From an uncultured Planctomycetota bacterium (GTDB taxonomy: Bacteria; JAJVIF01; JAPKYR01): a DNA stretch of 64,000 nt. A program made the position numbers and the translations under genes. This document shows, one piece after another, positions 27,473 to 43,997 of this stretch (position 1 is the stretch's first letter; the number at the start of each line of letters is the position of its first letter). Location: NCBI GenBank assembly GCA_964354375.1, contig CAYGZQ010000003.1:50040-114039 (forward strand), given 5' to 3'. Under the pieces are notes generated by a model. It was not told where the DNA came from. It worked only from the letters and a program-made list of their open reading frames with translations, and searched no databases.

Positions 27473-28687
27473 CTATTCATCGACGGGCTGGAGGACAATG
27501 TCGATCACGGTGAACTGGTCCGGGAAGACAACCACCGGCCCCTGGTGGACATAGGGCTGGAACTTGTCCTTCATACACTCAAGCTGATACTTGCCCGGCT
27601 TCACCGGATCGAACCTGTAAAGCCCCTTGGGGCTTGTCACTTCCCACATGACGAGCGGCGGAGCGTCTGGATCGTCGGGATTCGGGTGGATTAACCTCAC
27701 AATCGCCTCGGGAACAGGCTTTCCTTCAGGATCCGAGACCTTCCCCTCAACGCCGCCGCAATTCGCGGGCTCGAGGTGGAAGTTGATCATGTTCTGTCCC
27801 GGATGGACGTCCCATAATCGATGTCCCACATTGAAGCATGGAGCCTTGGCCCACAACTGATGCGGTCCCAGCGGGATGGGCGGGAACAGATAGACCCCGT
27901 GTTTGTTGGTGAAGGTCTCGATTTTCTTAGCGCCCGGCACGCCGATCGGCTCAAGTTCGACCAGGGCGTGGGGAATCGGCTTGGGAGCCTGCATCGGACC
28001 TGTCACTACAAATCCGCCCACGATGCCGAAATCGAGCTTCGCAGGGAGGAACAGGTTCTTCTGCACCTCGCCCTCGGCGATCACGAAGACCTGGTCCTTC
28101 GCAGTCGCATGTTCCGGGGCAAAGGCGAGGACAAGCCCCGGTCCGGCGGGCGCATCGGGAACGTTGTAGTAACCGTTTTCGTCCGTGAAATCAGCCCCGA
28201 AATTCTCGGTCTGGTTGAACACGACAACAAAGGCCTTCTTTACCGGGCCAAGTTGATCATGCACGAATCCCCAGACCGTGCCGCGATCGATCTCAGGATC
28301 GGGATCGCCGAATTCCTGCGCGTTTCGCGCCGCCAGCACAACGGTGGTCTTGTACACGACCTCCCCGTCGATTCGAGCTTCAAGTGCAGTTTCGACCTCT
28401 TCATCGACGCCGTAGATTGTGAATGAGCCGTCTTCCCCGGTCCATCCGGCGATCTCGCCGTCGATGTAGATTTCCGCCCACGCCAGAGGGTCGCCGTTGG
28501 AGTCGGTCAGGACCCCGCTGAATGTGCCGTCGGCGGCTGTCCTCGTCCCCTCGCCGGTGTCGGATGACGCGACGACCTCAGACGCTCCGGGCGCGGCTGG
28601 GCTGCTCGCGCCGGTGCAGCCCAGTATTCCCCAAAGCGACCATAGTGCGAGAAGGAGGAGGACTGATGTTGCGGTTCGACTTATCAT
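27473..28687 (-). CDS. Lipoprotein with four tandem carboxypeptidase-regulatory-like (CarboxypepD_reg) domains
   Basis: Start MISRTATSVLLLLALWSLWGILGCTG with RBS GGAGAGG. Repeats of GxVxDxxGxPLxxAxIxI…GxYxF type. Confidence 0.65.
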   Translation of the reverse strand: MISRTATSVLLLLALWSLWGILGCTGASSPAAPGASEVVASSDTGEGTRTAADGTFSGVLTDSNGDPLAWAEIYIDGEIAGWTGEDGSFTIYGVDEEVETALEARIDGEVVYKTTVVLAARNAQEFGDPDPEIDRGTVWGFVHDQLGPVKKAFVVVFNQTENFGADFTDENGYYNVPDAPAGPGLVLAFAPEHATAKDQVFVIAEGEVQKNLFLPAKLDFGIVGGFVVTGPMQAPKPIPHALVELEPIGVPGAKKIETFTNKHGVYLFPPIPLGPHQLWAKAPCFNVGHRLWDVHPGQNMINFHLEPANCGGVEGKVSDPEGKPVPEAIVRLIHPNPDDPDAPPLVMWEVTSPKGLYRFDPVKPGKYQLECMKDKFQPYVHQGPVVVFPDQFTVIDIVLQPVDE

Positions 28688-28819
28688 GTCGGGTACCTCT
28701 CCGTTCAGTTGGTATTTGTACGTAACGGGGTTCCCTCGAAAGGAAACCGGTACCCACATCCTTGCTGTCTGAGGTGTCTGACGAATCCGCGCGGACAATG
28801 TTCCCGGGACCGGGGCGAA

Positions 28820-28848
28820 AGAAAAATCCCGGCCGATGTCGGCCGGGG
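28820..28848 (-). terminator. Rho-independent terminator after flgI
   Basis: Minus-strand hairpin CCCGGCCGACATCGGCCGGG followed by ATTTTTCTTTC. Confidence 0.55.
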
Positions 28849-28885: not shown

Positions 28886-30124
28886 CTAGATGATTACGAG
28901 TTCCGCCTGGAGTGCGCCGGAGGCTTCGAGAGCCTGGAAGATGGCGACGATGTCCCTCGGCGTCGCGCCCAGGGCATTCAGGGCCGTCACGAGGTCCGCC
29001 GACGTGATGCGCACGAACTGAGCGGGCGTTTCCTGGACCTCCACTCCGGCCCTGGGAATGGCCATGGAGAATCCGCCGCTGTAGGGTGGGGGCTGTCCGG
29101 CCTCGAAGGATTGAGTGACGGTAATCGACAATGCGCCGTGCGCAATCGCCACCGGAATTATCTGCACGCCCGCGCCCATGACTATCGTGCCGGTTCGCTC
29201 GTTGATGACCACCTTGTTCGCAATATCCGGTTGGATCGTAAGGTTCTCGATCTCCGAGATGAACCGCACGGTATCGTTTCTATACTCGTCGGGCACCCTG
29301 ATATTCACGCTTGCCGGGTCCTGGGCTTCCACGAGACGGATCGACGGGAATGCGGTCACGATGGCGTCCCTGAGACGGATCGCAGTGGTGAAATCAGGAT
29401 TCATCAGGACGAGAGTCACAATGTCGTCCTGCACGAAGCTGAAGTCGACCTCTGTTTCCACGTACGCCCCGTTAGGTATTCGGCCCACTGTGAGGAAATT
29501 CGTCTGACGTCGCGCTCCCGCCCCACCTGCCGCTCCGCCGGCGGTGCCGAATCCGGCAAGGCTTACCGGGCCCTGCGCGACCGCATAAATCTCGCCGTTC
29601 GCAGCCCTAAGCGGGGACATGATCAATGTTCCGCCCTGAAGGCTCTGGGCGTCGCCCATCGCCGATACGGTGATATCCACCGTGTCTCCCTCGCGCGCGA
29701 ACGCGGGGAGGTCACAGGTGATCATCACGAGCGCGAAGTTCTTGACCTTGATCCCGGTCGGATCGGTCGGCAATCCGGCGCGCTCGAGCAAGTTGGCGAT
29801 CGCCTGCGCTGTAAAGTCGACGGAAGACGCGTTGTCGCCGGTACCGGCAAGCCCGGTGACAAGGCCGATGCCGTAAAGCTGGTTCCCGCGCACCCCAAGA
29901 ACGCGGGCGATATCCTTCACCCTGACAAGCGGCGCCTCCGAGTAATAGATCGGTTCTGCGAACTCCCATACGTCGGGCGTCTGACCGGTGTCACTGGCGG
30001 CAGCATCCGGCGCAGGCGCGGCAGGAGGCGTTTCCTGTCCGAATGCAGCCAGGGGAGCCGCTCCCAGGATGATTATCAGAGTCAACCTGATGAGAGTGTC
30101 TGCTATCTGTTTGATCGAGCACAT
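28886..30124 (-). CDS. flgI: Flagellar P-ring protein FlgI
   Basis: RVKDIARVLGVRGNQLYGIGLVTGLAGTGD matches the FlgI signature; signal peptide from the internal start MCSIKQIADTLIRL. Confidence 0.85.
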   Translation of the reverse strand: MCSIKQIADTLIRLTLIIILGAAPLAAFGQETPPAAPAPDAAASDTGQTPDVWEFAEPIYYSEAPLVRVKDIARVLGVRGNQLYGIGLVTGLAGTGDNASSVDFTAQAIANLLERAGLPTDPTGIKVKNFALVMITCDLPAFAREGDTVDITVSAMGDAQSLQGGTLIMSPLRAANGEIYAVAQGPVSLAGFGTAGGAAGGAGARRQTNFLTVGRIPNGAYVETEVDFSFVQDDIVTLVLMNPDFTTAIRLRDAIVTAFPSIRLVEAQDPASVNIRVPDEYRNDTVRFISEIENLTIQPDIANKVVINERTGTIVMGAGVQIIPVAIAHGALSITVTQSFEAGQPPPYSGGFSMAIPRAGVEVQETPAQFVRITSADLVTALNALGATPRDIVAIFQALEASGALQAELVII

Positions 30125-30176
30125 TGCGTTGTCGAGTAGAGTCCTCTTTCCTGCTGTCCGTCGAAAGCTTCCGACG

Positions 30177-30800
30177 TCAGAAGAAGAAATTGAATATTCT
30201 GGACAGGATTCCGTCGTGCTGGCGGTCGGCGATGATTCCCTCGCCCTGGTAGAGGACTTCCATGTCGGCGATCTGGCTCGAAAGAATCGTGTTGTCGATC
30301 GTGACATCGTCCGGACGGATCACGCCTCGGATGGTCAGCTCAGCGGAATCCTTGGCAATCGTGATCGAACGCAGACCCTCGATGACGAGATTTCCGTTGG
30401 GAAGGATGTCCACAACCGTCGCGGTGACCTGGGTGGTGAACGTCCCGGCGGTCGACACTCTTCCGTCGCCCTGGAATGTCTCCTTCGGCGTGAAGGTCAG
30501 GTCTTCGATGGGGGCGATGGTCTCGGGCAGGTCGGCTATCCATTGCAGAAAACCCTTGACCGAGATCTGACCGTCGGTATTGAGGCTCTTGTCGGTTTCT
30601 GTCGACGCGCGGTTGGTCGCGGAGGTTGTTTCGGAGATCAGGATCGTGACAAGATCGCCGATCTGGGCCGCCCTGTCGCACGTTATCAGGTCGCAACCGT
30701 CCTCGTCGAAAAGGCTCGTGGCCGACGAGGGCAGGGGGACAAGAAGTCCCAGGACGATTATCATTGAGAAGATTAAATAGCGCATGTTTGCTTTCCTCAT
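30177..30800 (-). CDS. flgH: Flagellar L-ring protein FlgH
   Basis: Size, signal peptide, IGDLVTILISETTSA motif and position between flgA and flgI. Confidence 0.75.
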   Translation of the reverse strand: MRKANMRYLIFSMIIVLGLLVPLPSSATSLFDEDGCDLITCDRAAQIGDLVTILISETTSATNRASTETDKSLNTDGQISVKGFLQWIADLPETIAPIEDLTFTPKETFQGDGRVSTAGTFTTQVTATVVDILPNGNLVIEGLRSITIAKDSAELTIRGVIRPDDVTIDNTILSSQIADMEVLYQGEGIIADRQHDGILSRIFNFFF

Positions 30801-30820
30801 TGAACGAATAATGTGCCCAT

Positions 30821-31564
30821 CTAATCCTGAATATTTATTTCCGCCCTTGATTGTCCTGTGACAACGGCCGTTATGATCGCGTTGGAATCGGGGTTCCTCA
30901 CACGGATTTCCTCGCCGAGACGTCCCGAGTCGAGCGCGATGCCGTGCAGCGTGACCGTTGCGGCACCGATCGGAACGACGACGGTCACCGCATCGCCCCG
31001 AACCACCAGGATCGGCAGTTCCACCATGGCGCTTGTCAGCACCCGGCCCGCGGGGATGTCAGTGCGAGCCGCGAGGCCTGCGATCTCCTCGAAGCTCCGA
31101 TAGACGTCACCTGACGGAAGCTCCTTCACGTTGACGATCGTTTCCTCGACATCGTCTTCCGTCAGGACCTGCCCGCGCTCGATTTCTCTCGCGGCGGCAA
31201 CCGCGGGGACCGTGACTTTCAGATACGGGCCTGGATCGAAGCGAAGATACAGCGTGCCGTCGACGCGAACTTCCACCGAGACAGCGCCGATGTCCTTGAT
31301 GCCGTTGGGAGTGCGCTCGAGGACCGCCTGCACCTCGATCAGTCCGTCGCTGTAGACCGTTATGTCGCTGGGAGTCTGGTCGATCTCGACCGTGCAACCT
31401 GCAGAGGCCCATGGATCGCTTGTGAGCACCAGGTTCCGGGCGGCCTCCAGAAGCCAGCCCGAGTTAAGGGTCCGGGAACCGGACGCGTTCACCCGGCTGA
31501 GTCCCGTCAGCGCGCAGATCGTAACAAGTGCCGCCATGAATCTTATGAAAGGCTGACTGGTCAT
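30821..31564 (-). CDS. flgA: Flagellar basal-body P-ring formation protein FlgA
   Basis: Signal peptide, C-terminal SAF-like region (RVLTSAMVELPILVVRGD…IRVRNPDSNAII) and conserved gene order. Confidence 0.7.
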   Translation of the reverse strand: MTSQPFIRFMAALVTICALTGLSRVNASGSRTLNSGWLLEAARNLVLTSDPWASAGCTVEIDQTPSDITVYSDGLIEVQAVLERTPNGIKDIGAVSVEVRVDGTLYLRFDPGPYLKVTVPAVAAAREIERGQVLTEDDVEETIVNVKELPSGDVYRSFEEIAGLAARTDIPAGRVLTSAMVELPILVVRGDAVTVVVPIGAATVTLHGIALDSGRLGEEIRVRNPDSNAIITAVVTGQSRAEINIQD

Positions 31565-31830
31565 CTTGAATCATGCAAACTCTCCGGCGGTCCGCCGGAG
31601 CAGTGCTGGAAATATCAAAGGGGAGGGGAGAAGAGTTCCTTTAATTGTTTCTGTGGTGACGTGGGCGCCGCGCCTCCGGAACAGCCCGCTTCGCAACCCT
31701 CTCTTGCGAAGAAGCCGGATAATTTTTGCCCCTTGCGGCCGGGCCTCATCGCCCTTTATGGACTCTTCCCCCTCCCTGTGAAAGTCACTCGTCGTCTCTT
31801 GCTTTCGTCTTCACCTCCCCACGGTGAGAA

Positions 31831-32619
31831 TTATCGCGCAAGATTGTTGGAGATACTCAGGAGCTGATCCGCCACGCTCACAGCGCGGGAGTTGGTCTCA
31901 AACGCGCGCTGGGCGATGATGAGCTGGATCAATTCCTCGACGATTGACACATTGCTGGCCTCAATGAAGCCCTGGGCGATCTGGCCGAAACCTTCCTCGC
32001 CGGGAGTTCCGGTGACCGGGTCGCCCGAGGCGTCGGTCTGCCGGTAAAGGTTCTGGCCTATGGTTTCCAGACCTGCAGGGTTCTGGAACCTGACCAGTTG
32101 TATCTGCCCTACCTGCGTGAGGGTCGTGTCGCTGCCCACCTGCACCGACACGGTGCCGTCGCTCGCCACTTCGACACGCACGGCATCGGCCGGGATCGTG
32201 ATGGGCGGCTCGATATAGAGCCCGTCCGCGGTCACCACGTTACCCTCGGAGTCGAGCTTGAACGTTCCGTCACGCGTGTAGGCCGCCGATCCATCCGCCA
32301 GCGTGACCTGGAAAAACCCGTCGCCGCTGATCATCAGGTCCAACGGGTTCCCGGTCGACTGTGCGGCGCCAAGGAGGAAGATTTTCTGGGTCGCGATCGG
32401 CCTTACACCGTGACCAACCCTGAGGCTCGTGGGAACCATCGAACCGGTCAGGGTGCTCTGACCGGCCCTGCGGTAGGTCTGGTAGAGAAGGTCCTGGAAA
32501 TTCAGCCTGTCCCGCTTGAAGCCGGGAGTGTTCGCGTTCGCGATGTTATTCGCGATAACGTCGGTGTTCATCTGCTGGGCCTGCATGCCCGTTGCCGCCG
32601 TGAATAACGCTCGAATCAT
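31831..32619 (-). CDS. flgG: Flagellar basal-body rod protein FlgG
   Basis: MIRALFTAATGMQAQQMNTDVIANNIANANTPGFK N-terminus; C-terminal rod-protein motif. Confidence 0.85.
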   Translation of the reverse strand: MIRALFTAATGMQAQQMNTDVIANNIANANTPGFKRDRLNFQDLLYQTYRRAGQSTLTGSMVPTSLRVGHGVRPIATQKIFLLGAAQSTGNPLDLMISGDGFFQVTLADGSAAYTRDGTFKLDSEGNVVTADGLYIEPPITIPADAVRVEVASDGTVSVQVGSDTTLTQVGQIQLVRFQNPAGLETIGQNLYRQTDASGDPVTGTPGEEGFGQIAQGFIEASNVSIVEELIQLIIAQRAFETNSRAVSVADQLLSISNNLAR

Positions 32620-32664
32620 GCTTAACTGCCCTCGCTTAGTGCCGCAACCGCATCCATCCGCGTC

Positions 32665-32763
32665 CTAGTACGGGACGAACGCGGTTGCCAGGTAGAGAAC
32701 CAGCAGAACGACCCACAGACATAGGTCCCCAAGGTCGTCCCGCATTCGTCGGAGCATCAACAT
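32665..32763 (-). CDS. Putative 32-aa hydrophobic peptide (MLMLRRMRDDLGDLCLWVVLLVLYLATAFVPY) between flgF and flgG
   Basis: ATG preceded by GGAGGAA. It is below the ORF-track size cut-off and lies in the only intergenic gap of the rod/ring operon. Confidence 0.35.
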   Translation of the reverse strand: MLMLRRMRDDLGDLCLWVVLLVLYLATAFVPY

Positions 32764-32854
32764 CGGGTTCCTCCTGTATCTGTTCTGTTCTCGCTAATCC
32801 TCATTCTCCCCCCAACCCGGTCGACTGATGTTGATTATTGATTTACAGATCCAC

Positions 32855-33646
32855 CTAACCCGGTAACCTGCCCAGCTCGTTGCTTACGCGATTGAGACTC
32901 TGGTTAAACATATCGACAGCTCTCGCCGCAGCTTCATAGGACCGTTGCGCCGAAATGAGCTGCACGAGGGAATCTATGGCGTTCACATTGCTGCCCTCGA
33001 TCACACCCTGCTCGATTGTGGAGTTGAGCGCGTCGAAGGGGGGCGCCGAGGTCGGGTCCACAGTTCTGAAAAACGTCGAGCCCTCTTTCTCGATCAAGCT
33101 TATGTCGGGGAATTCGACGATCCTGAGCATGCCCACCGGGAGACTGTCCTGAGTTATCTCGCCGTTCTGCCTGATGATTATCGGCGAGGGCGACGTGATT
33201 AAGATGGGCTGACGGTTAGAGCCCTGGACCGCATAGCCGGACTGGTTCACGATCCTGCCCTGGCTGTCCAGCATGAAGCTGCCGGCTCGCGTGTAGCGCT
33301 CTCCCTGCGGAGTATCGACGACGAAGAAGCCCGGACCCTTGAGGTAGAGATCGAGCGGATTGCCGGTGGTCTTGGGCACACCCTGGGAGAAATCAACGTA
33401 TTCGCTTTCAGCGATGGGCCCTCCGAGGTTCATCCATCCCACCCTGGGCGGGATGGCCTTCATCCGCAGAGGCGGTTCGGGCGGAGACTCGAGCCGCGAC
33501 ATCAGCATGTCCCCGAACGACCTCATCGCGATTCGGTCGCCCTTGAACCCGTCGGTGGAGACGTTCGCAAGGTTGTTCGCCACCGTCTCAACTTCATGAG
33601 CGCGGTAGCGCATTGCGTTCGCAGCAGCGTAAAGACCTCGAAGCAT
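32855..33646 (-). CDS. flgF: Flagellar basal-body rod protein FlgF
   Basis: Start is the internal Met MLRGLYAAANAMRY (rod-protein N-motif, ANNLANVSTDGFK); the ORF-track N-extension is discarded. Confidence 0.75.
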   Translation of the reverse strand: MLRGLYAAANAMRYRAHEVETVANNLANVSTDGFKGDRIAMRSFGDMLMSRLESPPEPPLRMKAIPPRVGWMNLGGPIAESEYVDFSQGVPKTTGNPLDLYLKGPGFFVVDTPQGERYTRAGSFMLDSQGRIVNQSGYAVQGSNRQPILITSPSPIIIRQNGEITQDSLPVGMLRIVEFPDISLIEKEGSTFFRTVDPTSAPPFDALNSTIEQGVIEGSNVNAIDSLVQLISAQRSYEAAARAVDMFNQSLNRVSNELGRLPG

Positions 33647-33779
33647 AGGAGAACACCGGACCTGGGGGCGATTCTTCTCGCCCATTCTGTTTATCGGAAA
33701 GAGAGTGGGGGGCTGAACGAGGAACGGGATGCAAGAGGCGGGAAAAGTGGACCCGAATGGCCTCCGGCTTCCGATGAAA

Positions 33780-34184
33780 CTACCTTCTTCTGCGACGCAT
33801 CTGAAGACGTGGTTTTCTTTGGCTACCGCTCGCCCAGATCTCGGCCTTGGACCGATCGCCGTATTTGTTCTGCATGGAAGCGTGTCGTTTCTTCGCCGAC
33901 GCGGAGCCGGCAATGTCGTAAATGAGATAAACCGGAAGGCCCCAGAAGTGAAAGACCGAGAAGAAGGCCCACCAGAAATACATGTTGCCGTGCTTCCGAC
34001 CCAGGATTTCGGCGAACACCCTGGTAAGCAGGAACCATGTTGCGGAGCCGAAGATCGCGAGCACGGGCCAGGCGGCGTTGTCGAAATCGAGCGGATGGTA
34101 CAGGCGAGCTTTGTTTATCAGCCAGTAGACCGGATGATAGTAGATCATGTAGATATAAATGAAACGCCAGACCGAGTACCACAT
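33780..34184 (-). CDS. Small multi-pass membrane protein (~134 aa), unknown function
   Basis: Start MWYSVWRFIYIYMIYY with RBS AGAGGA; 3-4 predicted TM helices. Confidence 0.5.
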   Translation of the reverse strand: MWYSVWRFIYIYMIYYHPVYWLINKARLYHPLDFDNAAWPVLAIFGSATWFLLTRVFAEILGRKHGNMYFWWAFFSVFHFWGLPVYLIYDIAGSASAKKRHASMQNKYGDRSKAEIWASGSQRKPRLQMRRRRR

Positions 34185-38872: not shown

Positions 38873-39084
38873 GCGTCCGGGAGCGTTTTAGTGTCGGATT
38901 GAACGTCCGATATTGGCAGAAGGGGTATTTGTGGCATATAATGTTCCCGACAAGGGGCGATGGTTCGATCCATCGTCGCATTTTCGGCATCATAACTAAT
39001 GCATGACCCTTGGCATGCTCTTTGAGTTTTAGTCTTTATAACCTGACATTATTATATTATTATATCATTCAAAAGGAGCGCAAC

Positions 39085-40164
39085 ATGGGTCTTCGTTTCA
39101 TGAAGGGCGTGTGCCTCTTCCTCGGCGGGGTCCTCGGTTACGCAATCGCGCTGCTTCTGCAGCCCTACCTGGGCAGCGAGAAGTACGACGAAGTCAAGAG
39201 CATTGTCCCCAACCTTCCCGGCATAATCATCGTGTTCGCCCTGGTCGGGTTCATGCTCGCCAGCATTGCGTACCGCGGTCTCATAAGGTTCAACGAGTGG
39301 TTTCTCAAGCTGATCCTGCAATCCAACGGTCCCAGGCTGGTCAACGGCATCCTGGGCGGGGTTATGGGCCTTGTCCTCGCGTTAGTGATTGACGTGTATT
39401 TCATCAACACGTTTTTCAGCACTCTCGCTGGAGACTACGGGGGCTTCATTTTCCTGGCCTGGGTGGGGATCATCATCATCCTCGTCTACCTCGGTGCGTT
39501 CTTCATGGCCAGCGTGAGGATCGGGATCGGCTCCGAAGAGGGCGGGGATGTCGCGGCTGCAAGCCCCAAAGTGCTCGACACGAACATCATCATTGATGGC
39601 CGAATCTCGGACATCATCCGCTCGAAATTCCTTGAGGGTCTCGTCATCGTGCCCCAAAGCGTGCTGAAGGAGCTCCATAAGCTCGCGGATTCGACCGACA
39701 CTCTGAAGCGCAACCGCGGACGTCTGGGTCTGGAGCATCTGAACAAAATTCAGGAAGCCCAGGACATCAGTATCCAGATTTACGACGATTTCTCCGAGCC
39801 GGACGAGGACACGTTTGACGTCGACAGCCACCTGGTCAGCATCGCCAAGAAAATCGGGGGGAGCATTGTCACGAACGACTACAACCTGAACAAGGTCGCT
39901 GTGCTCCAGGGCGTGCCGGTTCTCAACATCAACGAGCTCGCGAATGCCCTGAAGCCGGTCTTTCTCCCCGGCGAGAATCTCCAGGTGCAGATTATCAAGC
40001 ATGGCAAGGAATCGGGTCAGGGCGTGGCCTATCTTGACGACGGCACCATGATCGTGGTCGAGGGCGGCGACAGCTACATCGGCTGCAATGTCGATGTCGC
40101 GGTGACCAGCATCCTCCAGACCGTCGCGGGCAGGCTGATTTTCGCCAAGCCCCTGAAGGGGTAG
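39085..40164 (+). CDS. Membrane-anchored PIN-domain / TRAM-domain protein (YacL-like)
   Basis: N-terminal TM helices. PIN core [13 protein letters not shown]…[10 protein letters not shown]-terminal TRAM-like β-barrel segment. Start at ATG 39085 with RBS AAGGAG. Confidence 0.75.
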
Positions 40165-42573: not shown

Positions 42574-43575
42574 ATGTCTCCGACCGGACCCGAGAACGCT
42601 GCCTGGCGCGTCGGCATCGGATACGACGTCCACCGGCTTGTCGAGGGCAGAAAGCTCATCCTCGGCGGCGTGAAAATCGCCCATCCCACCGGCCTTCTCG
42701 GACATTCCGATGCGGACGTCCTCGCTCATACCGTGATGAGTGCACTTCTCGGTGCGATGGCCGCGGGAAGCCTTGGCGACCATTTCCCCGACACCGACCC
42801 GCAATACAAAAACATCTCGTCCATCGACCTACTTGAGCGAGTCAGGATCCTCATGGAGGAAAGCGGGTGGGTGCTTGAGAATGTCGATTGTATGGTTATA
42901 TGCGACGCTCCAAGACTTGCTCCACATATTGAGCTCATGAGAATGAACCTTTCGGAGGCTCTGCGTGTTCCAATAGAATGCGTGTCGGTCAAGGCGACCA
43001 GCACCGAGGGGCTTGGATACACCGGGACTGGAGAGGGGATCGCCGCGCAGGCGATCTGCCTTCTGAAAATGCCCGGAGAGGAGACCGAGAAGCCTGCCAA
43101 GGATAAGCGAAAATCCGAGAAAACGAAGAAAAAGCCTCAGATGCCGCCGCCCTTGCCGACGATCCGTCCGGGCGAGCTGGAGGGATGCGTTGCGCAGATA
43201 GACGGCGCATCGTCCGGGAACCCGGGACCGTCCGGTATCGGGATAGTTTTTGAAAATCCCGCCGGACATATGATCGGGAAGCTTGCGGAGTCGATCGGCG
43301 AGCGAACGAACAACCAGGCTGAATACCTGGCCGCCATCAGGGCGGCCGAGATATGCGCGGAGTGGGGGGTCAGGAAGCTTTACATCCTGACCGACAGCGA
43401 ATTGTTGTCGAAGCAGCTGGGTGGTTCATACAGGGTCAAGAATCCGGGGATACTAAGACTGTATAAGCGTCTTTCAGAGATTCTGTCGGGGTTCGAGAAA
43501 TGGAAAGTGAAACATGTGAGCCGTGAGGAGAACAAGGAAGCCGACAGGCTGAGTAGGGCGGCCTTGAAAAAGTAG
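42574..43575 (+). CDS. ispF: Fusion protein: MEcPP synthase IspF (N-terminal) plus RNase HI-like domain (C-terminal), joined by a Lys-rich linker
   Basis: IspF: GIGYDVHRLVEGRKLILGGV…GHSDADVLAHT. RNase H: IDGASSGNPGPSGIGIV (D), TNNQAEYLAAI (E), ILTDSELL (D), ENKEADRLSRAA (D). Linker EKPAKDKRKSEKTKKKPQMPPPLP. Confidence 0.85.
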   Translation: MSPTGPENAAWRVGIGYDVHRLVEGRKLILGGVKIAHPTGLLGHSDADVLAHTVMSALLGAMAAGSLGDHFPDTDPQYKNISSIDLLERVRILMEESGWVLENVDCMVICDAPRLAPHIELMRMNLSEALRVPIECVSVKATSTEGLGYTGTGEGIAAQAICLLKMPGEETEKPAKDKRKSEKTKKKPQMPPPLPTIRPGELEGCVAQIDGASSGNPGPSGIGIVFENPAGHMIGKLAESIGERTNNQAEYLAAIRAAEICAEWGVRKLYILTDSELLSKQLGGSYRVKNPGILRLYKRLSEILSGFEKWKVKHVSREENKEADRLSRAALKK

Positions 43576-43599: not shown

Positions 43600-43997
43600 T
43601 TGGGGAGCAGGCGAGGCGATCGCCGTCGTGGGCCCCGAGATTTTCGAGGGGCGCACGTCGGAGGAAAGTCCGAGCACCGCAGGGCAGGACGCTGGGTAAT
43701 ACCCAGGCGGCGCGAGCCGATGGAAAGTGCAAAGAAACCAGACCGCCCGGGCGGAAGCCCGGGTAAGGGTGTGAAGGTGAGGCAAGAGCTCACCGGCGGC
43801 CTGGCGACAGGTCCGTGCAAGCAAACCCCGTCCGGTGCAAGTCAAATCGGGAATACAGGGCTGCCCGTCCTTTCCCGAGGTAGACGCTGGAGGCAGACGG
43901 TAACGTCTGTCGTAGATGGATGATCGCGAGCCAGGGTCCCGAGCGTTGCGAAGGACCGGGCGGAACAGAACTCGGCTTATCGTCCGCTCCCCTTTCA
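43600..43997 (+). ncRNA. rnpB: RNase P RNA (bacterial type A)
   Basis: GGAGGAAAGTCCGAGCACCGCAGGGCAGG (P4 and surrounding region), GGTAAGGGTGAAGGTG, GCAAGAGCTCACCG and ACAGAACTCGGCTTATCG. The P1 strands GGGGAGCAGGCGA and TCGTCCGCTCCCC define the ends. Confidence 0.88.

Follow-up and report, generated by a model that had tools for sequence, protein, structure and literature searches.

A small gene appears to be embedded in the flagellar rod and ring operon of a 64-kb stretch of DNA from an uncultured Planctomycetota bacterium (contig CAYGZQ010000003.1; the whole stretch is referred to below as the window). The operon lies on the minus strand, and an open reading frame (ORF) of 32 codons stands between flgF and flgG. 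This ORF is very probably a real protein-coding gene because it was syntenic in 10 of 13 lineages and displayed a coding-type substitution pattern. With moderate confidence, we read it from the sequence as a genuine gene for a single-pass membrane peptide that would serve the flagellar basal body as an accessory subunit or modulator. The rest is an ordinary rod, P-ring, and L-ring operon with two lineage-specific additions, the small gene and a structured RNA between flgG and flgA.

The ORF between flgF and flgG

The DNA around 12 FlgF proteins of the same clade was fetched, and together with the window it represented 13 distinct lineages. In a large protein collection, the FlgF clade comprised 33 homologues of 56 to 93% identity, after which identity dropped to 42%, and a scan of one genome per species with FlgF returned nothing above 38% identity. 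A profile scan of metagenome contigs added the locus L047, which duplicates L042 and was the sole new clade locus among the matches listed. The small ORF was found at the same flgF-flgG position in relatives whose FlgF was 59 to 93% identical. Nine lineages carried the 32-codon type of ORF (the window, L031/32, L037, L038, L039/40, L041, L043, L045, and L046), and in L042/L047 the conserved C-terminal two-thirds of the peptide sits within a 75-codon ORF. The ORF had exactly 32 codons in eight of these nine, without any frameshifting insertion or deletion, despite the variable lengths of the flanking spacer. In the window and L031, this length was kept by a two-codon insertion that was offset by an earlier stop. 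Every copy of the ORF was preceded by a GGAGG-type site 5 to 8 nt ahead of its start codon.

The substitution pattern was that of a coding sequence. In pairwise comparisons by the Nei-Gojobori method, the mean synonymous difference was 0.62 and the mean nonsynonymous difference 0.34 in the frame of the ORF, figures that are rough only, since synonymous sites were near saturation. In the two shifted frames, the relation was lost or reversed (0.42 against 0.40 and 0.29 against 0.45, respectively). The mean pairwise difference at codon positions 1, 2, and 3 was 0.42, 0.27, and 0.54. Constraint on the peptide exists but is moderate, which is the usual case for membrane proteins this small.

The three remaining lineages (L033/34, L035/36, and L044) had short flgF-flgG spacers of 98 to 125 nt from which the small ORF was gone, with recognizable remnants left behind. 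In L044, the remnant was a ribosome-binding region followed by ATG-TGA; in L033 and L035, it was GGAAC(A)AACCC, and the start codon was gone. These deletion remnants indicate that the small gene was ancestral to the clade and was lost secondarily, and the sequences point to at least two deletions within the clade.

The family was narrow. A profile of the nine peptides was searched against 126 loci and the window, translated in all six frames; these sites were its only matches. About 110 flgF loci of other phyla yielded nothing significant, and neither the loci nor the window contained a second copy. In four assemblies, the ORF was already among the predicted genes. The peptide of the window itself is not in the protein collection, and its 90% cluster (P0122) has one member, the L031 sequence. 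A word-indexed search of 5.8 billion proteins, made with an alignment headed by the 75-amino-acid (aa) version, found family members in six clusters. An exhaustive profile search of 1.84 billion representative proteins yielded one spurious repeat protein besides eleven genuine clusters, which were all 32 to 64 residues long and without a name and had the conserved part at the C terminus. The peptide had no match in Pfam or NCBIfam and no larger homologue in the protein collections; judged from these sequences, it is not a fragment of a larger known protein. Literature searches turned up no earlier description of a small ORF in the flgF-flgG spacer. Being conserved in synteny, the ORF should be treated as a gene of a new, lineage-restricted family of single-helix membrane peptides.

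The Kyte-Doolittle hydropathy of the window peptide was -0.56 over residues 1 to 13, a basic and polar segment that contains four Arg residues, and 2.25 over residues 14 to 32. AlphaFold2, supplied with the family alignment, predicted a single helix over residues 2 to 28 (pLDDT of 84.8). Three residues, R6, W17, and Y24, were invariant; the basic N terminus read MLKxRRxR[DE], and the tail was usually T-[VI]-P-x-G-[IF]. Under the positive-inside rule, a basic flank stays on the cytoplasmic side of the membrane. The N terminus of the peptide is thus expected to be cytoplasmic, with a short tail of 3 to 5 residues in the periplasm. An earlier reading of the window, made from its letters without database searches (the sequence-only reading), had described an ORF with a GGAGG ribosome-binding site, a charged N terminus, and one transmembrane helix, and had named synteny in relatives as one way to check it. 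The site is present (AGGAGGAA), the position is kept in the same 10 of 13 lineages, and both hydropathy and AlphaFold2 agree with the predicted architecture. That reading had also suggested a small flagellar assembly or regulatory peptide. Its peptide has proved to be the product of a conserved and apparently real gene; for its flagellar role, synteny is the sole argument.

A role of this kind could be pictured as follows. The small gene would have been present in the ancestor of one deep-branching lineage of uncultured bacteria, and a sigma-28-type promoter would drive its transcription together with that of the rod genes flgF and flgG; a promoter-like site precedes flgF in all lineages, and the stretch from flgF to the small ORF showed no terminator-like site. 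The ORF would be translated independently into a 32-residue single-pass inner-membrane peptide. While the rod is under construction, this peptide may assist or modulate the flagellar basal body as a small accessory subunit in the membrane, possibly in contact with the MS-ring/export-gate complex or with another membrane component. Its role would be helpful and not essential, because three lineages deleted the gene yet kept the rest of the operon. We regard a flagellum-related function of the peptide as a tentative proposal drawn from the sequence, and any one specific partner as much less likely still.

Several points weigh against this picture. Besides the roughness of the substitution values, the L043/L046 pair had a ratio of nonsynonymous to synonymous change (pN/pS) of about 0.8, so that constraint was modest there, and the peptide outpaced FlgF in divergence, with 38 to 63% identity to the window peptide compared with 59 to 74% for FlgF. 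The gene was lost in 3 of the 13 lineages, and every sequence compared was metagenomic. The flgF-flgG placement holds for the loci seen, a set that leaves out the family members P0127 and P0129 to P0132. Finally, the peptide has no homology to any flagellar protein, and its link to the flagellum is one of position only.

The main rival explanation is that the ORF works in cis, as a leader or upstream ORF that sets the translation of flgG or the stability of the message and whose peptide has no job after release. The mRNA would be remodeled when the ORF is translated or when translation pauses at the end of it, on the stop codon, as with TnaC, SecM, and MifM. The ORF does end 13 to 45 nt upstream of flgG, the gene was dispensable in three lineages, and its conservation is full length, including the C-terminal P-x-G-[IF]-stop motif. 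The stop codon of the window copy is covered by a very stable 19-bp hairpin (z = -4.75), the whole spacer there had a z value of -3.6 compared with shuffled sequences, and at termination a 32-residue peptide would not yet have left the tunnel of the ribosome. However, the hairpin was not conserved: five of the nine lineages had z values between -0.1 and -0.9, and the register of pairing differed. Since it was significant in only two or three of the nine, we rejected it as a conserved regulatory device, and it is probably lineage specific; the ribosome-binding site of flgG, moreover, lies outside it. A chain of 32 residues is too short for force-sensing arrest of the MifM/SecM kind, which likewise speaks against a leader peptide. 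Nor would a leader need the standard architecture of a membrane peptide, with a basic N terminus and 19 hydrophobic residues, and the N-terminal extensions of relatives to 64 to 75 aa fit a protein better. We consider it unlikely that the ORF is mainly a leader.

Type I toxins are 20 to 50 aa long and have one transmembrane helix, and the peptide resembles them in size and composition, as well as in its strong ribosome-binding site and sporadic loss. It could then be a small hydrophobic toxin-like or unrelated membrane peptide that lodged in the spacer and has no flagellar role. Toxin-antitoxin loci are not typically inherited in a stable vertical fashion, as this gene is; it occurs as a single copy in a fixed syntenic position down to 59% FlgF identity, without a second copy in the loci or the window, and it shares both strand and transcription unit with its flanking genes. 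No antisense promoter-like site or RNA element was found in the region, and this origin appears very unlikely. Still harder to credit is an untranslated ORF whose conservation would reflect an RNA or DNA regulatory element, the open frame being incidental. The same spacer does contain a conserved noncoding purine-rich box, and the neighboring spacer is a structured RNA, which means that conservation at the RNA level exists in this operon. The pattern, however, was frame specific, with the third codon position the most variable and synonymous change exceeding nonsynonymous change in the ORF frame only. The frame stayed open, and its 32 codons were kept with compensating C-terminal changes; the start codon and the ribosome-binding site were conserved, and amino acids were better conserved than nucleotides. 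An expressed membrane peptide thus remains the preferred reading of the ORF.

A structured RNA in the flgG-flgA spacer and the putative promoter region

The spacer between flgG and flgA was conserved in blocks across all 13 lineages, and its pattern of compensatory base-pair changes indicates a conserved structured RNA that was previously undescribed. Its closing helix, P1, carries the evidence. The 16 pairs of P1 had 86 to 92% paired cells, a value that fell to 51 to 68% when the 3' partner was slid by 1 to 3 columns. In 11 of the 16 pairs, both sides had changed, and the pair types included GC, CG, AU, UA, GU, and UG; none of 500 shuffles reached the covariation score. The many G-U pairs of P1 fit the sense strand of the flg genes only. 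These numbers refer to an alignment that was made by hand to fit the helix, with N as padding, as MAFFT lost the register of the arms; MAFFT with RNAalifold on the raw spacer alignment recovered part of P1 only. The window copy of the RNA folded better than shuffled sequences (z = -2.6).

Inside P1, two near-invariant blocks could pair in two registers, GAUG-CGUC or GGCG-CGUC, each of which was favored by different variant lineages; neither register showed double-sided changes. The inner domain was mostly missing in L039, L043, and L046. The second hairpin, 3' of P1, was not called as a terminator in the terminator scan. With a nucleotide profile (nhmmer), one copy of the RNA was found per clade locus, and none of the about 110 more distant flgF loci, which belong to other phyla, gave a match. 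Comparison with Rfam gave no match at the gathering thresholds, and the matches at E values of up to 10 were at chance level (best E = 0.085, 22 bits against a cutoff of 115 bits). The gap held no conserved small ORF among the relatives. Literature searches returned no report of an RNA motif before flgA; riboswitches are reviewed in PMC11477304.

The position of the RNA, the U-run after P1, and the hairpin that follows suggest a cis-acting element, which may tune read-through or translation from the type III-exported rod genes into the Sec-exported flgA, flgH, and flgI. Some more specific ideas did not survive. In an antiterminator model, the upstream GGAGGUGA (GGAGG) box would pair with the C-rich arm of P1; this pairing was marginally better than shuffles and far weaker than P1, and no convincing alternative fold was found. 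A TTGACA-like box just 5' of P1 was rejected as an internal promoter because no usable -10 box follows and because the covarying 5' arm of P1, with its many G-U pairs, would go untranscribed. A hammerhead-like resemblance (CUGAUGA/GUC) and a 6S-like rod shape had no support in Rfam. What stands is a newly described RNA whose covariation is solid and which is a candidate regulator. Should it answer a signal, it would provide a checkpoint between rod and ring synthesis, which is not known in any model organism.

Upstream of flgF, the pattern T[TA][TC]AG-N14/15-CCGATAA was found 47 to 50 nt ahead of the ATG in 13 of 13 lineages. The sigma-28 (FliA) consensus is TAAAG-N14-GCCGATAA, and we take the flgF site to belong to this type on the basis of that consensus, with which both sequence and spacing agree. 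The composite pattern occurred twice in the window, where 0.06 occurrences were expected. The second match lies on the plus strand at 38887..38913; the gene that begins about 95 nt downstream of it (39010..40164) encodes a PIN-domain protein and is syntenic in several relatives. A sigma-28-type promoter would be unusual for rod and ring genes. Between the flgF site and the gene, a hairpin of the 5' untranslated region (UTR) differed in stem sequence among relatives with its pairing kept, for example, GGGTAT..ATACCC and GGGTAC..GTGCCC, as judged by eye. Next comes a conserved GGUG ribosome-binding element, at a distance from the flgF ATG of 9 nt in the window and 7 to 10 nt across the lineages.

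Two further boxes have no gene behind them. The purine-rich box of the flgF-flgG spacer was kept even in lineages without the small gene, with no conserved ORF behind it, and a hairpin of the CsrA-site type, tried on this box, gave no consistent fold. The box after flgG read GAGGUGA in 9 of the 13 lineages and GGAGGG in 3 more, was absent in one, and likewise had no conserved ORF following it. In the spacer alignments of the relatives, no conserved small ORF lay behind the orphan GGAGG boxes. These boxes after the flgF and flgG stops (UCGGGAGGAG type and GGAGGUGA) may be binding sites of the ribosome or CsrA type.

A bolder, and in our view improbable, proposal joins all these elements. The peptide would be a new basal-body or rod-assembly factor, the RNA would be a riboswitch or a protein-binding attenuator of about 160 nt that gates FlgA, FlgH, and FlgI relative to FlgF and FlgG, and a sigma-28-type promoter would drive all of them. 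If this were true, the flagellar gene hierarchy would be unlike the textbook one. If, conversely, the peptide and the RNA both lack a flagellar role, the locus is no more than an ordinary rod and ring operon.

The operon and its surroundings

The order flgF-flgG-flgA-flgH-flgI was common to all 13 lineages, with unrelated genes following. The FlgF protein scored 176.7 bits against TIGR02490 (NCBIfam), just under the cutoff of 178.5, and the flgF model was still its best hit. The start of flgI at 30124 was chosen by the signal peptide-like N terminus MCSIKQIADTLIRLTLIIILGAAPLAAFG (MCSIKQ...) and by the lengths of its relatives (396 to 427 aa). Features of the operon, together with the peptides of the relatives, are listed in Table 1.

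TABLE 1 Features of the flg operon in window coordinates, and peptides encoded by the small ORF in relatives
Feature	Position	Strand	Basis or remark
Sigma-28 (FliA)-type promoter-like site	33691..33717	minus	TTCAG-N14-(T)CCGATAA
5' UTR hairpin	33666..33683	minus	GGGCGAGAAGAATCGCCC; between promoter-like site and flgF; also in terminator scan
flgF (proximal rod protein), 263 aa	33646..32855	minus	Pfam Flg_bb_rod, LlgE_F_G_D1, Flg_bbr_C
Orphan purine-rich box	32799..32813	minus	GGGGGGAGAAUGAGG; spacer alignment; UCGGGAGGAG in most relatives
Shine-Dalgarno sequence of small gene	32775..32768	minus	AGGAGGAA; 6 nt before ATG
Small gene (putative), 32-aa peptide	ATG 32763 .. TAG 32665 (99 nt)	minus	MLMLRRMRDDLGDLCLWVVLLVLYLATAFVPY; ORF, conservation, coding pattern
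Hairpin spanning small-gene stop codon	32644..32688	minus	z = -4.75 in window, -2.9 in L046, -1.7 in L043
flgG (distal rod protein), 262 aa	32619..31831	minus	Pfam; TIGR02488 flgG_G_neg, 356.4 bits (cutoff, 252.75)
Orphan Shine-Dalgarno-like box	31811..31820	minus	GGGGAGGUGA; 11 to 20 nt after flgG stop
Structured RNA core	31777..31620	minus	P1 covariation, nhmmer, folding
P1 closing helix, 16 bp	5' arm 31777..31762; 3' arm 31636..31620	minus	G-rich 5' arm, C-rich 3' arm
A-rich linker		minus	From P1 5' arm to next block
Near-invariant block	31754..31742	minus	GGGCGAUGAGGCC
Variable inner domain hairpin	31711..31689	minus	GAGAGGG loop; purine-rich, (G)GAGGG
Near-invariant block	31666..31655	minus	GCCCACGUCACC
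Second A-rich linker		minus	Between GCCCACGUCACC block and P1 3' arm
U-rich run		minus	Directly 3' of P1; in about 8 of 12 lineages
Second hairpin	31600..31582	minus	CUCCGGCGG-ACC-GCCGGAG, then AGUUUGC; most relatives, not L034, L043, L045
Weak GUGA-type ribosome-binding site		minus	About 6 nt before flgA start
flgA (P-ring assembly chaperone)	31564..30821	minus	Pfam ChapFlgA and SAF; TIGR03170 (a C-terminal domain model), 110.6 bits (cutoff, 54.65)
flgH (L-ring lipoprotein)	30800..30177	minus	Pfam FlgH, 158.7 bits (cutoff, 27)
flgI (P-ring protein)	ORF 30307..28886; likely start 30124	minus	Pfam FlgI, 394 bits; NF003676, 381 bits (cutoff, 300)
Intrinsic-terminator-like hairpin after flgI	28847..28828	minus	8 G-C pairs and T run; closes operon; terminator scan
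L031 peptide			As window, with F at end
L037 peptide			MLKFRRLQNNLEDIFIGTVLLLLYLATIPLGI
L038 peptide			MLMLRRMQNNLGEMITWVVLLVLYLATLPLGTWLGMQ
L039 peptide			MLKLRRMQDELAEVFMWVILLVLYLCTVPVGI
L041 peptide			MLKLRRFRDSLYVYILWLLLMVLYLATVPAGF
L043 peptide			TTG start, then HKYRRFRDEMADLLLWFVLLVIYVMTIPLGI
L045 peptide			MLKIQRIRETFIDWCVWAILAAMYLLTVPSGY
L046 peptide			MLKHKRFREELTDLCMWFVLLVLYLMTIPAGI

The gene order given in the sequence-only reading (flgF, the small ORF, flgG, flgA, flgH, and flgI on the minus strand) agrees with Pfam and NCBIfam, and the terminator that it placed after flgI was found as a hairpin with a T run. It had also called the operon compact, with one sizeable gap. With internal spacers of 235 nt between flgF and flgG (32620..32854) and 266 nt between flgG and flgA (31565..31830), the operon is not especially compact, and the gap that had been overlooked is the larger one, which holds the structured RNA.

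The absence of flgJ, to which the same reading had drawn attention, was borne out for the operon and the window: no FlgJ-type domain (Rod_binding or glucosaminidase) was detected in the 64 kb, either among ORFs of at least 180 aa or among ORFs in the gaps. No flgJ was found within 6 kb in any relative, and in the 13 related loci no gene of any kind separated flgI from the unrelated downstream genes. The 64 kb contained no other flagellar gene among the ORFs scanned, and the flagellar genes of this lineage are therefore dispersed. It is chiefly the beta- and gammaproteobacteria that typically have a FlgJ with two fused domains, and outside these groups a single-domain FlgJ with a separate lytic enzyme is common (PMC8517470). 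Because of these two circumstances, the absence of flgJ carries little weight and is uninformative; the gene may be elsewhere in the genome, possibly in a single-domain form with a separate lytic enzyme. Were neither the peptide nor the RNA to have a flagellar role, the missing flgJ would carry no meaning.

The upstream neighbors shared by most relatives encode a secretin, a PKD-repeat protein, and a small polytopic membrane protein. In the window, the last of these is a 134-aa protein (MWYSVWRFIYIYMIYYH...; 33780..34184, minus strand) without a Pfam or NCBIfam match, and its counterparts of 130 to 152 aa, which also had no Pfam hits, immediately precede the flgF promoter in most of the relatives. 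The secretin and PKD-repeat genes, also syntenic, precede it. Behind the terminator after flgI, a CarboxypepD_reg-domain protein is encoded (27473..28798, minus strand), as it is in L035, L037, L041, and L045, often with a DsbD-like membrane protein next. Genes for a Mu-like gpT or phage capsid adjoin the flagellar operon in L043 (10849..12252) and L044 (1..852), which indicates prophage insertions near the flagellar locus in these two. Elsewhere in the window, a bacterial RNase P RNA of class A, which could be useful for placing the lineage in a phylogeny, was found at 43604..43994 on the plus strand (245 bits), and one ORF on the same strand (42574..43575) fuses an IspF (YgbB) domain with an RNase H/RVT_3-like domain, an unusual fusion.

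Comparison with known systems

The enterobacterial flgBCDEFGHIJKL and flgAMN operons, known from Salmonella and Escherichia coli, include the same five proteins, with FlgF before FlgG and FlgH before FlgI as found here. In Salmonella, these are class 2 genes. Unlike in the enterobacterial operons, flgA lies here inside the operon, between flgG and flgH, and there is no flgB, flgC, flgD, or flgE upstream and no flgJ, flgK, or flgL downstream. Further differences, each as read from the sequence, are the sigma-28-type promoter in front, the additional gene of 32 aa, and the structured RNA inside the operon.

For the RNA between flgG and flgA, there are parallels in other flagellar operons. Clostridioides difficile has a c-di-GMP-I riboswitch ahead of flgB, and the flg-Rhizobiales motif is another RNA of flagellar operons. 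Like these, the element described here is structured, stands before flagellar structural genes, and is followed by terminator-like elements. It differs from them in lying within an operon between two genes, in its G-rich/C-rich closing helix of 16 bp, and in which nucleotides are conserved, and it had no Rfam match to them at E values of up to 10.

The small ORF shares with TnaC, SecM, and MifM its shortness and its position directly upstream of a gene that would be regulated, and the hairpin at the stop codon in the window is reminiscent of these systems. In contrast to them, the hairpin here is unconserved, the peptide is too short for force sensing, and it is not known to match any arrest motif. 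Among flagellar proteins, FliO, which assists in the assembly of FliP and the export gate, is, like the peptide, a single-pass and poorly conserved membrane protein. FliO is about 100 to 125 aa long and has a soluble domain, and its gene is next to fliP. The peptide is smaller than FliO, which in addition has that soluble domain and its place beside fliP. We rejected the peptide as a FliO, since the peptide had no match to the Pfam FliO model, with only chance Pfam matches at E values of up to 10, and no fliP was found among the window ORFs scanned.

The peptide also resembles AcrZ, KdpF, CydX, and MgtS, single-helix accessory subunits of about 30 to 50 aa that belong to larger complexes. Their genes lie in or near the operon of the complex and evolve fast, annotation often omits them, and their roles are often nonessential. 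The peptide is like them in size, in its one predicted helix, in operon placement, in fast evolution, in omission from annotation, and in dispensability. It has no sequence similarity to them, and the resemblance is one of possible working mode and not of family membership; by this analogy, the peptide is most likely comparable in kind to AcrZ, KdpF, or CydX. Small membrane proteins are routinely missed by annotation, and several have proved to modulate large machines. A conserved putative peptide gene between two rod genes offers a tangible candidate for an accessory factor of the flagellum that is specific to one lineage.

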